A stretch of DNA of 64,000 nucleotides from Eledone cirrhosa (lineage: Eukaryota), in assembly GCA_964016885.1 (NCBI GenBank), contig OZ024740.1, forward strand, positions 276,830,001 to 276,894,000. Direction: 5' to 3'. Position 1 is the first letter of the stretch; each line of letters starts with the position of its first letter. The translations under genes were made by a program, and so were the position numbers. Below the pieces are notes generated by a model. The model made no database searches. It saw only the letters and a list, made by a program, of their open reading frames with translations, and was not told the DNA's origin. Shown one piece after another: positions 4,067 through 47,997 of the stretch.

Positions 4067-4552
4067 ATGTATGTATACATGTATGTTTGTATGCATGCAT
4101 CGATGTATGCATCTGTGAATGCATATGTATGTATGTACGTATATATGTAAGTGTATATGCATATATGTATGAATATATGCTTGCATGTATGTATACATTT
4201 ATGCATGTGTGTATGTATGTATATATGTATGTATGAATGTATGTACGCATGTATGTATGTATGTTTGTATGCATATATGTATGAATGTATGTAAGTATGC
4301 ATGTATATATGTATATATGTATACTTACATACATTCATACATATATGCATACAAACATACATACATACATGCGTACATACATTCATACATACATATATAC
4401 ATACATACACACATGCATAAATGTATACATACATACAAGCATATATTCATACATATATGCATATACACTTACATATATACGTACATACATACATATGCAT
4501 TCACAGATGCATACATCGATGCATGCATACAAACATACATGTATACTTACAT
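4067..4552. repeat. Long inverted duplication (about 235-bp arms) of degenerate TATG microsatellite
   Basis: gcatgcatcgatgtatgcatctgtgaatgc (about 4093) is mirrored by gcattcacagatgcatacatcgatgcatgc (about 4497); centre about 4310. Confidence 0.85.
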
Positions 4553-6122
4553 GGGCCCGCAAGAATACACCCAACAACTTCGATATCACCATGGGATCTA
4601 GTAACTCGGCACAGGTAACCGAATTAGTCGGTCTATTTCTCTTAAACGAAATACACAAGAACCTACCTTACTTCAACGATGGCCTCTACCGAGACGACGC
4701 ACTTTTCCTCTTACAATATAAAAAGTTCAATATAGAAAGAACTAGAAAACAATTACATAAAATATTTAAAAGCTATTACTTAGGTATCACTTTAGATAAA
4801 CACACCAAAAATGTTAACTTCCTGGACGTTACTCTCTACTTAGACTCTAAAAAATACACACCTTATCATAAACCTAATGAAAACCTTTTCTATGTTAATA
4901 CCAACTCTAACGACCCTAAATCTGTACTGACCTCAATCATTAAAGGTGTATCTAATAGAATCTCTAGCCTTTCTTACAACGAGAATACATTTAATCGTAA
5001 CTCCCAAAACTATAATGAAGCCTTAGCCCGTTCCGGCCATAGATATAAAATTAAGTTTAAACCTAAATCGTCAACCACCCATAGACAACCTAATATACTT
5101 TCACACAACATAAAAGTAAATATGATCATAGTATTGAAAGTCCTGACTCCTATACAAAGGGCACCATAAAAAAAGTTAAATCACACCACAGCAATAATCC
5201 TAAGAAACACAACAGAAAGAAAAATATAGATAAGAAGGAACCTAACACCACACTAAATAGTAGTATGAATAACAACCATAAGAACAATAGAAGTAGTAGC
5301 ACATTTTTCAACCCTCCGTTCAACTTAAATGTATCAACAAACATACCTAAAGCTTTCTTCTCTACTCTAGACAAAAACTTCCCAACTAACCCTAAATACC
5401 ACAACCTATTTAACAAAAATACAATTAAAATATCCTACTCCACCACATCTAACATAGCAGACCATATAGCCAGCACCAATAAGAGAAAGATTAAAAAGTA
5501 CTTCAAATTACACCAAAGTAATAATGTCCAGCATAGAAATAACCTGAACAATAACACAGTACAAGACCATACAGCAAGTCACACTAATAATACCAATAAT
5601 AATAATACTCACCATAATCATAATACTAGAAGTAGAAACAGAAACAACCACTCAAATGCATACCCCCTTAACCAGTATACTAGTTACCAAAACAATTGTA
5701 ATTGTAGGTCTAACAAGACAGGCCCATTAAACGAGAACTGCCTAATTAAAGACATTGTCTATTCCGGTACTGTAACCGCTAATCACACCCCGAAAGTATA
5801 TATAGGCTCAACATCGAATAGCTTTAAGACCAGATATAATTCACACCTTTATTCGTTCAAAAACCCTAAACTTAGCAACGTAACCTTACTATCCACATAC
5901 ATACACTCATTAAAATCAAGTAACATACCATACCCCTTAAAATGGGAAGTGATAGCTGAGGCCCCTTCATATAGACCACCTAACAAATCTTGTAACCTTT
6001 GCATCCTCGAGTCTAAAAATATTATTCACTCTAACCTTAGCCTACTAAATAGGAAATTATAGATCTTCTACACGTGTCCACATCACCATAGATTCTCGAT
6101 CCACTACTTCAAACCTAGTAAC
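4553..6122 (+). pseudogene. Penelope-like element (Naiad-type), 5'-truncated RT + GIY-YIG ORF, frameshifted
   Basis: RT motifs FDITMGS...ELVGLFLL, GLYRDD, VNFLDVTL, YHKPN; linker FFNPPFN..V.TNI.K.F...DKNFP; CNC..PL...CL; GIY-YIG VYSGTV...VYIGSTSNSFKTRYNSH; CNLCILE...LNR..CPH. Frameshift near 5110-5260 and a stop at 6060. Confidence 0.92.
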
Positions 6123-18118: not shown

Positions 18119-18421
18119 CTAAGGATTAATATGGTTCATTGATTACTCAATGAATATAGTTTTACAATAGATTAAAAGCACTCTACAAGAAGGTTTTTTT
18201 TAGTTATTAATATTATTCAGAATATTAATAAATGAAGACATTCTATTCCAGTATTGGCAGTCAATACTGGAATTGAACCATCAAGACCGTTGAGGTATGT
18301 CATACATCAATTCCTGTATTTTATCTGACGAGGACATACTGAAAAAAACAGCACAGTACCTTCGAAATATATATAATAAAACATATTTTGGTTATGTGAA
18401 TGTCTTCATTTATTAATATTC
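18117..18421. mobile_element. TA-embedded fold-back mini-element family H2 containing an HHR (18319-18381, +)
   Basis: gaatattaataaatgaagacattc (about 18220) is inverted at about 18398; HHR ttttat-CTGACGA...GAAA-tatata-TA-ataaaa; second copy at 36325-36521. Confidence 0.8.
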
Positions 18422-23461: not shown

Positions 23462-23698
23462 GTCTATATTTTTATTTTTAATTTCATTCGCACCGTTTCC
23501 TTTCGCTATATGTCTCTCCACCACTCCCCTACACACCATTTGAACTCTGTTCCCACACACTTCTCACCCGAGGAAAGGCTTATGCCCGAAACGTCGTTCC
23601 CCACCAACACCCCACTCTCCAGAGCGTGAAATTAATAAACATTCGTTGTACTGCCTCTCTGTTTTGTTCCTGTTCAAATTTTTCCATTATATATATAT

Positions 23699-24205
<507 letters not shown>

Positions 24206-28289: not shown

Positions 28290-30260
<1,971 letters not shown>

Positions 30261-43243: not shown

Positions 43244-44110
43244 TTCTCACTAAGAGTTATGACTCTAAATACACATCTTTCACTAAGAGTTATGACTCTA
43301 AATACACATTTTTCACTAAGAGTTATGACTCTAAATACCCATCTTTCACTAAGAGTTATGACTCTAAATACCCATCTTTCACTAAGAGTTATGACTCTGA
43401 ATACACATTTTTCACTAAGAGTTATGACTCTAAATACACATCTTTCACTAAGAGTTATGACTCTAAATACACATTTTTCACTAATAGTTATGACTCTAAA
43501 TACACATCTCTCACTAAGAGTTATGACTCTAAATACACATCTTTCACTAATAGTTATGACTCTAAATACACATCTTTCACTAAGAGTTATGACTCTAAAT
43601 ACACATCTTTCACTAATAGTTATGACTCTAAATACACATCTTTCACTAAGAGTTATGACTCTAAATACCCATCTTTCACTAAGAGTTATGACTCTAAATA
43701 CACATCTCTCACTAAGAGTTATGACTCTAAATACACATCTCTCACTAAGAGTTATGACTCTAAATACACATCTCTCACTAAGAGTTATGACTCTAAATAC
43801 ACATCTTTCACTAAGAGTTATGACTCTAAATACACATCTCTCACTAAGAGTTATGACTCTAAATACACATCTTTCACTAAGAGTTATGACTCTAAATACA
43901 CATCTCTCACTAAGAGTTATGACTCTAAATACACATCTTTCACTAAGAGTTATGACTCTAAATACACATCTCTCACTAAGAGTTATGACTCTAAATACCC
44001 ATCTTTCACTAAGAGTTATGACTCTAAATGCACATCTTTCACTAAGAGTTATGACTCTAAATACACATCTTTCACTAAGAGTTATGATTCTAAATACACA
44101 TCTCTCACTA
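43244..44110. repeat. 33-bp minisatellite, about 26 units
   Basis: Unit cactaagagttatgactctaaatacacatcttt with few variants; each unit carries the near-palindrome AGAGTTATGACTCT. Confidence 0.97.
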
Positions 44111-44998
44111 AAAACAATATCTAATTAACGGCATCAAATAAAACTGTACTTTGAACTCAGCGTGTAACAGTTTCCCTGCCGTCGTCCCTGGGATTGGCAA
44201 TGAAAATGCTACCAGGACCATTATCTCTAAAACTATTATGACTATGGTTGGACAAACCGACAGATACGGTTCAGATAACCAAAGAGAATGTTCCTTAGCG
44301 ATCCAGCTCACAACTTGAGTCGGCCGCAGCGACAGCAGCTGCAGCAGCACAGCTAACAATAACAACATTAACAACATAGACAATAACAATAACAACATTA
44401 ACAACATAGACAACAGTAACATAGACAATAACTTAATCAGCAGCATTGACAGCAAGGCCAAATCACATAACTCAGCAACAGAATTCCTCAAACACAACAA
44501 CCCCAAGGATAGGCTATTCTCCGATTTCGGAAAGGGTGGTGTAAAAGCATCACTACCTTCTCAGACGTACCCACTACTCTGATAGGTGGCGACAGGATTT
44601 CCACAATGTACAAATGTGGACAAGCTCAATGCATATCGGGTCATCCAGATTGAATTCAGATATAGTATCATGTAGGTGAGTAGAGAGGAATAGAGTATGT
44701 TGTTCAAAATTTCAAGCGATTAACTACGCAGACCACACATTTACGATCTCTATGGTCAACTTAAATAGGCTTCGTTGGCAGAAACTTCATTATTAGAAGC
44801 TGAATGCATCTTTTCGCGGTGCACAAAGCATAGTGAGAGCGTGTTAGTGAAGTTCCTGAGCCGGTGTTAACATGGGTATTCAACAACAACTAAAGGTAGC
44901 TCACCCTGACTCATTCCAAGCATGCAGCTGGCAATATATTATACGTTAAAAGTATGAAGGTAATATTTGTGCACTGATAGGTGTGTGTGTGTGTGTGT

Positions 44999-45447
44999 AT
45001 TATTAATATACGAAAAACTCAGATTACCTTTATTGTATTCAGCCATGTAGAGCGATAACTAGTTGTTAGTTATTTGAATATGGCAAAGCTGGCCATTAAT
45101 CGCCCGCATACATGAGACTGACTGGCCTATCTGCTGACATGCAAATCTGACTGAGCAGTTGGTCTGCTAATATGCAGATCTGACTGATCAATCAGTCTGC
45201 TAATATGCAAATCAGGCCGATCAGTCACTGTATATTTCAGAAAATAGCTCTAACAGTTGGCAGGTAAGCAGTAAACTGCACTGATGAAGGGTAACCACCC
45301 AGAAACATTATTGTCTGCAGTTCTGTTTGCATACCAACACAAGAGCGAGAATGAGGGGCTCATTCTACTGATATGGCTTATAAAAGAGGGTGTTTGCATA
45401 ATTGCAAACGAATCGAATATTATTATTAATATTTGAAAAACTCAGAT

Positions 45448-45450
<3 letters not shown>
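44999..45450 (+). mobile_element. Retrozyme-like non-coding HHR element, 423-nt monomer with 29-nt terminal direct repeat
   Basis: attattaatat(ac/tt)gaaaaactcagattac at 44999-45027 and 45422-45450; canonical HHR inside; flanked by (TG)n and (TA)n. Confidence 0.7.
45274..45322 (+). ncRNA. Type I hammerhead ribozyme with canonical core
   Basis: aactgca-CTGATGA-a-gggt aacc accc-a-GAAA-ca ttat tg-TC-tgcagtt: 7-bp stem I, 4-bp stem II, GUC cleavage triplet. Confidence 0.88.
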
Positions 45451-45480
<30 letters not shown>

Positions 45481-45482
<2 letters not shown>

Positions 45483-47997
45483 GTTGGAAAGTAAAAAATC
45501 GGAGAATAGACCGTTAAAACATGTTTATTTAAAATATCACCTACGTACGTTTCGCCCAGTTGGGCTTCTCAAGGGCATAAATAATCACAAGTGTTCCTTA
45601 TATTGCTCGGAAAGAGTTTTTGGGGTTAAATCCACATCAAGGTTCATTGCTCGCAAAAATATCTTGTTTTGATTTTGCAGCAGGTCAAGGGATGTAACTC
45701 TGGCCGGTGTTAGGGCAGTCTTTCCCGGACATTTTTTTTTTTTTTTTGTCGCATCCGTTTGTCTGAGGCTGGGTCTGGTATACAAGGATTGTTTCCTGGG
45801 TGTTATTTTGCAGCGCCTGCCCGCCGGGGTGTTAAGACTTGTTGCAGGGAGATCCAGTGTACTATTTCACTCTTCATCCTTAACCCATCTGAAGAAGGAT
45901 TTTTTAAGCGATGTGTACAACTTATCGCTGTTTCAGCTCTGCTGTTGATGAGCTCGTGGGGTGCAGTCATGATGTGGTAGAGCTCCATGAGGCAAAGATC
46001 GCATTTTCTCTTGAAGTTGTACGGTGCAGCCCTGCCGACAATCTCCCAGTGCGTGGAGAAGCTGATGTTTAAGTCCTTTAGTGATGTGATGTAGTCCGCG
46101 AGCGAAGTGGAGTGCCTTAGTTTTCTATTTGTGAAAGAGTGGAGATGTGTTCGAAACCTAATTTTGAACGGGCCGGAGGTGGCCCCTATATAATGTTTAA
46201 CGCTATTGTGGCTAGTAATAGTGCATCTATATATAACCCTATATATATAACCCTATATAACCATCTATATATAACCCCGGCGACGGTGAACACTGTAGAT
46301 TACTCAAACTATTCCCCTATTATAAAACCAACAAAGGCGACGGCCTACTACCAACGCCTTCCAACCAACATCTTCGTGTACATAAACATGGAAGTGGTAG
46401 AAAGAGTGCACCCGAGCATAAAGTAAAAGGGGCACCGAACGGGCGACTGCGCATTAACACACATAAGAGCGGTCACTTAGATAGAACCACCCGTAGCAAA
46501 AGTACAAGGACACGTAATCGCCACCGTAACGTCCTATGGTTCCACCCCCCTACTCTCGGAGTGTGGCCTCCAACATACCCCGGATGTTCTTCGAAGCCTT
46601 AGAGAAGAACTTCCCGCCCAACCATAGGTATAGAAAAATTCTTAATAGGAACAATATAAAAATATCCTTCTCTACTACTCCTAACCTAGCAGACATCATA
46701 AGAACAACGAACCACAGTAAGATCACCAAGACACAGCACCTCGACACAGACGCGCCTACACCTGACAATAACTATATCGGCCTTAACAACTCCCTGGCAG
46801 AATCCAATAGTGTTGGCAACGGCATCCGCAGACGCAACCAGAATGACAACGAAATGACTGGGGAACATGCAGAACATGACGTGCGGAATAACAATCGCAC
46901 CACCCCGCGTGCTGTGGGTTGTAATTGTGCTAACGACAGCTGCGGTAGCGTAGGTAACAACGTAGGCAGCAACAATGATAGCCTTACCGTGGGAAGTAGA
47001 CGGAACTGCGACAGAAATTACAACTGCCGCAACAGAGGACGCTGCCCCCTTAGAGGATACTGCTTGACTGATAGGGTTATATATAGATGCACTATTACTA
47101 GCCACAATAGCGTTAAACATTATATAGGGGCCACCTCCGGCCCGTTCAAAATTAGGTTTCGAACAGATCTCCACTCTTTCACAAATAGAAAACTAAGGCA
47201 CTCCACTTCGCTCGCGGACTACATCACATCACTAAAGGACTTAAACATCAGCTTCTCCACGCACTGGGAGATTGTCGGCAGGGCTGCACCGTACAACTTC
47301 AAGAGGAAATGCGATCTTTGCCTCATGGAGCTCTACCACATCATAACTGCACCCCACGAGCTCATCAACAGCAGAGCTGAAACAGCGATAAGTTGTACAC
47401 ATCGCTTAAAAATATCCTTCTTCAGATGGGTTAATGATGAAGAGTGAAATAGTACACTGGATCTCCCTGCAACAAGTCTTACCACCCCGGCGAGCAGGCG
47501 CTGCAAAATAACACCCAGGAAACAATCCTTGTATACCAGACCCAGCCTCAGACAAACGGATGCGGCAAAAAAAAAAAAAAAAAAAATGTCCGGGAAAGAC
47601 TGCCCTAACACCGGCCAGAGTTACCTCCCTTGACCTGCTGCAAAATCAAAACAAGATATTTTTGCGAGCAATGAACCTTGATGTGGATTTAACCCCAAAA
47701 ACTCTTTCCGAGCAATATAAGGAACACTTGTGATTATTTATGCCCTTGAGAAGCCCAACTGGACGAAACGTACGTAGGTGATATTTTAAATAAACATGTT
47801 TTAACGGTCTATTCTCCGATTTTTTACTTTCCCACGTGCTTACGCTCTGCTAACTCTCTAGCCCACTAAATATTAACACTTCGAATATTTAATACTGCCG
47901 GCACTAGTATCGAGCACCTTTGGCATACTCTACTTGGCAAATAACTATATGTATCACCTATCCCCCCTTTTTTTCTCTTTCTCGATACGTAAATACT
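45481..47997 (+). mobile_element. Third Naiad-type Penelope element: inverted 3' copy (about 45481-46242) plus forward 5'-truncated copy (about 46280-47997), inserted in (TA)n
   Basis: ORF 46536-47447: PPYSRSVASNI...EKNFP..HRYRKILNRNNIKISFSTTPN; NCRNRGRCPLRGYCL..VIYRCTI...HYIGATSGPFK.R; CDLCLME..INSRAE..CTH. 45481-46242 is the reverse complement of about 47071-47837; a tail of about 160 nt follows; U3-A8 HHR-like core TTGAGAA-gccc aact gg(g/a)c-GAAA-cgtacg-TA at 47746-47776, then AATAAA. Confidence 0.92.

Follow-up and report, generated by a model that had tools for sequence, protein, structure and literature searches.

A non-coding unit in the genome of Eledone cirrhosa (3.0 Gb) is probably a copy of an abundant non-LTR retrozyme family, mobilized by Penelope-like elements (PLEs) through a predicted circular RNA. 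The unit lies on the forward strand at positions 44998-45456 of the 64,000-nucleotide stretch that we analysed (the window) and comprises 1.08 turns of a monomer of about 436 nt, running from monomer position 1 to 436 and then from 1 to 36. Judged from its sequence, the family is a non-LTR retrozyme: it is small, non-coding and self-paired, carries a type I hammerhead (HHR) and has no LTR structure. No stop-to-stop frame of at least 120 aa was found in the unit. A first-pass annotation of the window had proposed a retrozyme-like non-coding unit of slightly more than one turn; the length agrees with the 1.08 turns found, and the identification was borne out by permuted copies, by copies with two tandem HHRs and by the lack of LTR flanks.

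The window copy, which is 94% identical to the family majority, is truncated at its 5′ end, where monomer position 1 abuts a (GT)n flank (44981-44998, + strand; placed from sequence and alignment), and runs at its 3′ end into an (AT)n tail (45451-45481, + strand), the target site. Its ends form a direct repeat (44998-45033 and 45421-45456) with a period of 423 nt and 89% identity over 36 nt, 28 of the 30 nt of its core being identical. The annotation had described a 29-nt redundancy with this period. The repeat is real, but it is not a property of the family: 3′ ends of family copies cluster while their 5′ ends vary freely, so the redundancy merely marks the point where the second turn of this truncated copy stopped. 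The period is 423 nt, as against 436 nt in the family majority monomer, because of a private 13-nt deletion (monomer 248-260, at 45244/45245, + strand), which takes out a TATA-like stretch.

A DNA search of the genome gave 4,058 candidates, and full-length matches among the 40 that were scored had 83-89% identity. An exact HHR pattern matched 2,402 times genome-wide and never in the control, a total that takes in a sister family (8 of the first 100 matches listed); a looser pattern gave 3,190 matches against one in the control. The copies are dispersed, circularly permuted pieces of the monomer, 0.5 to about 2 turns long. Both the multimers and the permuted copies for which the annotation had suggested searching were found. 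In a position-sampled set, consisting of the first 30 HHR matches on contig 1 minus one duplicate and two sister-family loci, 3 of the 27 remaining loci carry two tandem HHRs; the sequence-ranked sets had 5 of 30 and 19 of 22 (24/52). The window copy has one HHR only and is not such a tandem. The longest true copy (L044) reaches about two turns, and among the loci examined neither a copy with three tandem HHRs nor a long array was seen. A supposed four-HHR copy (L057) was rejected as an artefact of aligning through a 1.4-kb block that is duplicated. Family pieces also occurred in three further contig sets (5,288-5,967 in each), figures that show presence only, and the HHR-pattern scan of metagenomes gave 0 matches.

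The sister family (L122, L128, L196-L201, L205, L206, L210; G000:C1) is divergent. It has the same A.A hammerhead core, a single octamer/TCAG module, a fully substituted stem I, the terminal hairpin of the main family and an internal (TA/TG)n stretch, and one of its loci (L205) carries two HHRs in tandem. Separately, 17 of 87 loci carry a tRNA-like SINE in the TATTATT loop of a conserved hairpin, its 5′ junctions differing between loci (L010, L014, L016, L017, L019, L028, L033, L035, L040, L044, L047, L054, L121, L126, L131, L199 and L201); this loop is likely a SINE insertion hot spot.

Metazoan non-LTR retrozymes described from coral, mussel and axolotl likewise have a type I HHR and are non-coding, low in GC, self-paired, tandem and accompanied by PLEs (PMC7229834). 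The monomer of about 436 nt lies slightly above the 170-400 nt range given for them, and the dispersed copies of 0.5-2 turns, with no long arrays seen, differ from their arrangement as described there (PMC7229834).

The hammerhead motif occupies 45274-45322 (+ strand), with its core at 45281-45287 and a predicted cut at 45315|45316. It is laid out as AACTGCA, CTGATGA, A-GGG-loop-CCC-A, GAAA, stem III and GTC, TGCAGTT; stem III is short, and stem I continues beyond a 2-nt bulge, reaching about 45259-45337. An Rfam scan of 44900-45600 returned no hammerhead at E<=10, so the call rests on the motif scan and on the comparison of copies. For the window as a whole, the best 150 of 337 Rfam rows were dominated by microsatellite matches. 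The annotation had named this the best HHR in the window: the motif stands, and the ranking is a matter of judgement, with seven other HHR-like matches in the motif scan. Minimal HHR-like motifs with palindromic loops, some of them in inverted pairs, occur at window positions 18325, 23945, 31192, 31310, 35483 and 35528.

Across 71 family segments, the HHR core is exact in 62, and pairs 1-6 of stem I are kept in 68-71, followed by a U-purine bulge and an 8-bp extension. This within-family pairing is partly by construction, because the search expression fixes some stem I letters. The sister family uses other letters in stem I, yet these are paired in 6-7 of 7 segments, and such compensatory changes, like those in a downstream hairpin, are stronger evidence than the pairing within the family. 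In 70 of the 71 segments, the base of stem II is an A.A mismatch. A G-C pair is described as normally conserved at this position (PMC4209133), and natural U.U mismatches there are reported still to cleave (PMC3088659; PMC7229834), as in the axolotl HHR_Amex2 (PMC7229834); the A.A mismatch may slow cleavage. The short stem III suggests that cleavage would be dimer-assisted. Of nine predicted Xenopus retrozyme dimers in one study, eight were reported not to cleave (bioRxiv 2026.07.22.740005). Downstream of the HHR, a hairpin at 45349-45365 (+ strand) has an inner pair that changes in a compensatory manner between copies: among 73 segments it is G-C in 29, A-T in 26, C-G in 9, G-T in 1 and unpaired in 8.

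Upstream of the HHR lies a predicted snRNA-type promoter module (45205-45244, + strand), consisting of an octamer at a U6-like position and a TCAGT box at 45221, placed as in U1/U2/U5. We lean slightly towards a working promoter of this type in the family. The annotation had suggested that the unit possibly has its own POU-dependent promoter, and had listed octamer and TATA motifs and three repeats spaced 33 nt apart. The octamer part held: three 33-nt repeats (45130-45228, + strand) each carry an octamer-like box, at 45139, 45172 and 45205. The TATA motif, TATAAAAG, is indeed present at 45379-45386 (+ strand), but only 7 of 39 copies have it, so it was rejected as a promoter part and is better described as subfamily-specific. 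The promoter-like module is instead found before the HHR, where it resembles the snRNA promoters of the host. In the family, the 33-nt repeats carry a TCAG box besides the octamer, and the sister family has one such module only. An unrelated minisatellite at 43247-44111 of the window (26 copies at 95%) shares the 33-nt period and has another sequence.

Host U1, U2, U4, U5 and U6 genes were taken from the genome (upstream regions of L061-L063, L076-L079, L091-L096, L150-L156 and L242-L243), and 15 hand-picked, non-redundant U1/U2/U5 promoters were compared. In these 15, the first letter of TCAGT lies at -55 to -58, 12 promoters having the exact box and 3 a single mismatch, and a TATA-like stretch follows near -30. 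Host Pol II snRNA genes have AATTAA near -88, TCAGT at about -57 and a TATA-like box at about -30, and the U6 genes an octamer-like box at -77. A distal TAYYTCCCT is shared at -256 to -287 by 9 of 16 host snRNA promoters, and the host 3′ box is AAAATCAGAC-like.

When a matrix built from U1 and U2 was applied to the monomer, its best site (16.2 bits) fell at position 222, on the sense strand and directly before the HHR, a peak reached in 0/1000 shuffles and 0/420 background tiles. The matrix of all 15 promoters was matched in 2/1000 shuffles, and 1/144 window tiles reached its score. With U2 alone (180/1000 shuffles) or U5 alone (92/1000) the monomer site was not significant; the significance of this proximal element (~-57) depends on the training set. 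On five held-out U4 upstream sequences, the matrix ranked the -57 site first in none; by eye, they have TCAG or CCAG at -57/-58. The distance from TCAG to GGC|AG is 53-58 nt in 39 of 45 family segments, compared with -55 to -58 in host genes, and 57 nt in 6/6 sister copies, and that from octamer to TCAG is 16 nt in 35 of 38. The octamer of the unit sits at about -73, near the octamer-like box found at -76 to -78 in three U6 promoters, and the U6-type box of the monomer was equalled in 5/2000 shuffles. We infer a transcription start at monomer 278-282, about 19 nt upstream of the first HHR core. In the window copy the equivalent of the predicted GGC|AG start of intact copies would be 45262 (+ strand), and the private deletion shortens its TCAG-to-start spacing to 41.

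The strongest competing reading concerns the promoter step only. It holds that the octamer, TCAG and TATA-like elements are by-products of a palindromic repeat in a retrozyme without its own promoter, the RNA coming from host read-through. We regard this as a real possibility, if one on which we would not settle. According to a 2020 review, retrozymes seem to have no promoters (PMC7761336). The repeats have a second role in RNA pairing, and, beyond the weak performance of the matrix on U2, U5 and U4, the host AATTAA box (near -88, by eye) and distal box (-256 to -287) are absent from the unit. Moreover, in a comparison of the two families, conservation of the block next upstream (64/91) comes close to that of the promoter block (57/76). 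Against it stand the sense-strand position of the best matrix site directly before the HHR, the spacing kept in both families and the rarity of the U6-type box in shuffles. A 3′ box was also considered for the unit and rejected: the best match had 2.5 bits, compared with 8.4-19.6 for host boxes, and was equalled in 455/1000 shuffles.

Newt satellite 2 also argues against a promoterless element, since this HHR repeat is described as containing a Pol II promoter of snRNA type like the one proposed here (PMC2220036, citing Coats 1994). It is a 330-bp tandem repeat, whereas the unit is dispersed and has a triplicated module. The newt promoter is said to contain an octamer and a PSE. The unit differs from it in that the octamer adjoins the TCAG box, at a U6-like distance; the promoter of the unit is a predicted one.

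The window unit folds with z -6.3 as a linear molecule and -6.8 as a circle, and both long-range pairings named in the annotation are present in the predicted fold. The majority monomer gives z -16.2 as a circle (40 shuffles for each circular fold), a score that the internal palindromic repeats inflate; the folding as a circle that the annotation had proposed as a check was more stable than shuffles for both. With moderate confidence, we favour a circular template over a linear one. In 31 of 37 cases, the artefact row L057 being counted among the 37, the turns within a copy resemble each other more closely than the average other copy does (0.909 vs 0.885), and the two turns of L035 share 21 of 22 polymorphic sites, compared with 0.53 between copies. 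In L032, L044, L047, L049 and L050, the first turn includes sequence 5′ of the predicted start. A linear RNA initiated at the promoter could not supply the template for it, which counts for the circle; new masters call for a circle or else for read-through combined with template switching. The circle is also favoured because related animal retrozymes are reported to accumulate as circular RNAs (PMC7229834).

An element that behaves as a small PLE and forms no circle is unlikely, though it explains part of the data. Here a linear multi-turn or read-through RNA would be reverse transcribed from an internal start, template switching or re-priming would yield the partial tandems, and the HHR would only trim the RNA or be slow. 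Consistent with this, copies stop at about two turns and the stem II mismatch may slow cleavage. In vitro, insertion of an Anolis PLE did not need HHR cleavage, and uncut linear RNA was the main substrate for reverse transcription by one PLE (PMC11167929). On the other hand, the strong self-pairing of the monomer as a circle, the compensatory pairs outside the HHR, the subfamily variants shared by the two turns of L035 and the circular RNAs of related retrozymes speak against it.

The ends of the family copies look, from their sequences, like those of PLE insertions. In the position-sampled set, 3′ ends fall at monomer 36-85 in 23 of 27 loci, with peaks at 36, 41 and 58; a microsatellite tail is present in 22, and 13 have an opposite-strand (inverted 5′) piece beside the main piece. 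The integration in a microsatellite proposed in the annotation is thus borne out, the window copy itself having its (AT)n tail. Most 3′ ends, those at monomer 36 and 41, coincide with an AT-rich site at 45026-45037 (+ strand; ACATTTATTGTA in the family, one change in the window copy), which we infer to be an internal start of reverse transcription. Partial tandems, inverted 5′ copies and tails are described for PLEs. EN+ PLEs (Penelope/Poseidon, Neptune, Nematis and the Anolis Poseidon PAc, for which internal initiation of reverse transcription on AT-rich targets is reported; PMC11167929) have partial tandems and inverted 5′ pieces in common with the family, as well as AT-rich targets and fixed internal 3′ ends downstream of the HHR. 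Unlike them, the unit has no ORF, and its HHR has a long bulged stem I and not the minimal PLE form.

A SINE-like element transcribed by Pol III from a U6-type promoter and ending at the T-run after monomer 58 would account for the octamer at a U6-like distance, for the TATA-like stretch and for 3′ ends at or before a T-rich stretch. Pol III is expected to stop at runs of five or more T. Such runs (at least 5) follow monomer 58 in 18 of 34 read-through copies, which argues against Pol III, and copies carry the upstream promoter and whole turns; we consider this reading very improbable.

As to the machinery, the annotation had named Naiad. Naiad PLEs occur in cephalopods and are described as sharing a (TA)n target preference with the unit, but also as lacking HHRs and having an N-terminal endonuclease; Naiad machinery is unlikely because Naiads lack HHRs, and the two HHR-bearing, (AT)n-targeting PLEs that we examined in this genome both have a C-terminal GIY-YIG. 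Nothing in the analysis linked Naiads with the unit. One of them is the neighbouring PLE (45481-47837, listed without strand), which abuts the (AT)n tail of the window copy. It has a 927-aa ORF with a C-terminal GIY-YIG (weak in Pfam, E 0.092), and its 150 scored copies have 97-100% amino-acid identity, making it a younger family than that of the unit. This very young family (also L171, L194 and L195; intact ORFs of 927-928 aa; 56,055 search candidates) has probably been active recently, to judge from its copies. We rejected it as the source of the unit: it has no similarity to the monomer (best E 0.8). Its terminal repeat contains a TACCTCCCT motif at window 47622-47630, which is also in the snRNA distal box; here it lies upstream of a TATA-like box and of the PLE's own HHR-like motif, whose core deviates (TTGAGA). 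Further PLE pieces lie in the window at 4285-6062 and 28521-29435.

The second HHR-bearing (AT)n PLE has a tail that shares the 12-mer ACATTTATTGTA with the main 3′-end site of the unit in 32/32 copies; the match was equalled in 7/5000 shuffles, for a motif chosen after the fact. At a single locus (L033) the unit is fused to the last ~100 nt of this PLE, which a later insertion into the PLE tail would explain equally well. This second family (window 23467-23713; L204, L212-L241) is young, and its copies terminate roughly 95 nt beyond the HHR cut, at an internal ATATATA. Because tandem copies read through it in L218, L228 and L234, the ATATATA stretch belongs to the element, and it would pair with an (AT)n target. 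The idea that the A.A mismatch is common to the second PLE family was rejected, as only 1 of the 33 sites read has it. Within the unit, two hairpins occupy 45392-45436 (+ strand); the second block, 31/34 identical in the sister family, is a candidate recognition signal and also the likely hot spot of the tRNA-like SINE. In the L198:3868 region, a 5′-truncated, decayed PLE and a sister-family copy meet head-to-head, a single case that is possibly a co-insertion.

That the unit is merely the solo pLTR (3′ end) of a coding PLE, the case that the annotation had named as refuting its proposal, is highly improbable: the insertion anatomy is that of PLEs and vertebrate retrozymes are reported to be related to pLTRs (bioRxiv 2026.07.22.740005), but copies extended 5′ wrap into their own monomer and not into an ORF, no PLE protein match abuts the 5′ junctions of the family in the loci tested (only the sister copy at L198 adjoins one, head-to-head), and the neighbouring PLE is dissimilar.

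In the retrozyme reading that we prefer, copies long enough (at least ~700 nt) to comprise the promoter, an HHR, a monomer and a second HHR would be transcribed from the snRNA-type promoter, probably by Pol II, starting some 19 nt upstream of the first HHR core. The two HHRs would cut, perhaps as a dimer, releasing a monomer that a host ligase would close. A PLE with a C-terminal endonuclease would then nick (AT)n DNA, prime at the AT-rich sites 140-190 nt past the cut and reverse transcribe around the circle; most of the resulting copies would be truncated, and some would be new masters. The window copy itself is probably an inactive dead end: it would not make monomer alone because it has one HHR and its TATA-like box is deleted. 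The complete version of this scheme, a self-promoted retrozyme with captured U1/U2- and U6-type boxes and an A.A HHR that circularizes and is copied by a specific (AT)n-targeting PLE recognizing the conserved hairpin and the 12-mer next to the internal priming site, we put forward as a tentative and rather doubtful combination.

Our search for cephalopod retrozymes, which covered articles but not repeat libraries such as Repbase or Dfam, turned up no paper on one, and the main text of an octopus repeat-annotation paper, its supplements aside, mentions neither ribozyme nor retrozyme. To judge from that search, the family has not been described before within the retrozyme class, though paper supplements may list related elements. 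The class itself is already known. To it, the family adds a precise predicted start in agreement with the snRNA promoters of the host, and insertion footprints of the kind expected from PLE machinery; the transcription start and the mobilizing element of retrozymes were both stated as open in the 2020 review (PMC7761336). Most interest attaches to the predicted snRNA-like promoter and to the fixed internal priming sites; the window copy is ordinary, truncated and probably inactive. If the promoter is genuine, it would, together with newt satellite 2, make snRNA-type promoters a recurrent feature of retrozymes across phyla, and, if the scheme holds, family and PLE would offer a cognate pair for reconstituting reverse transcription around a circle.
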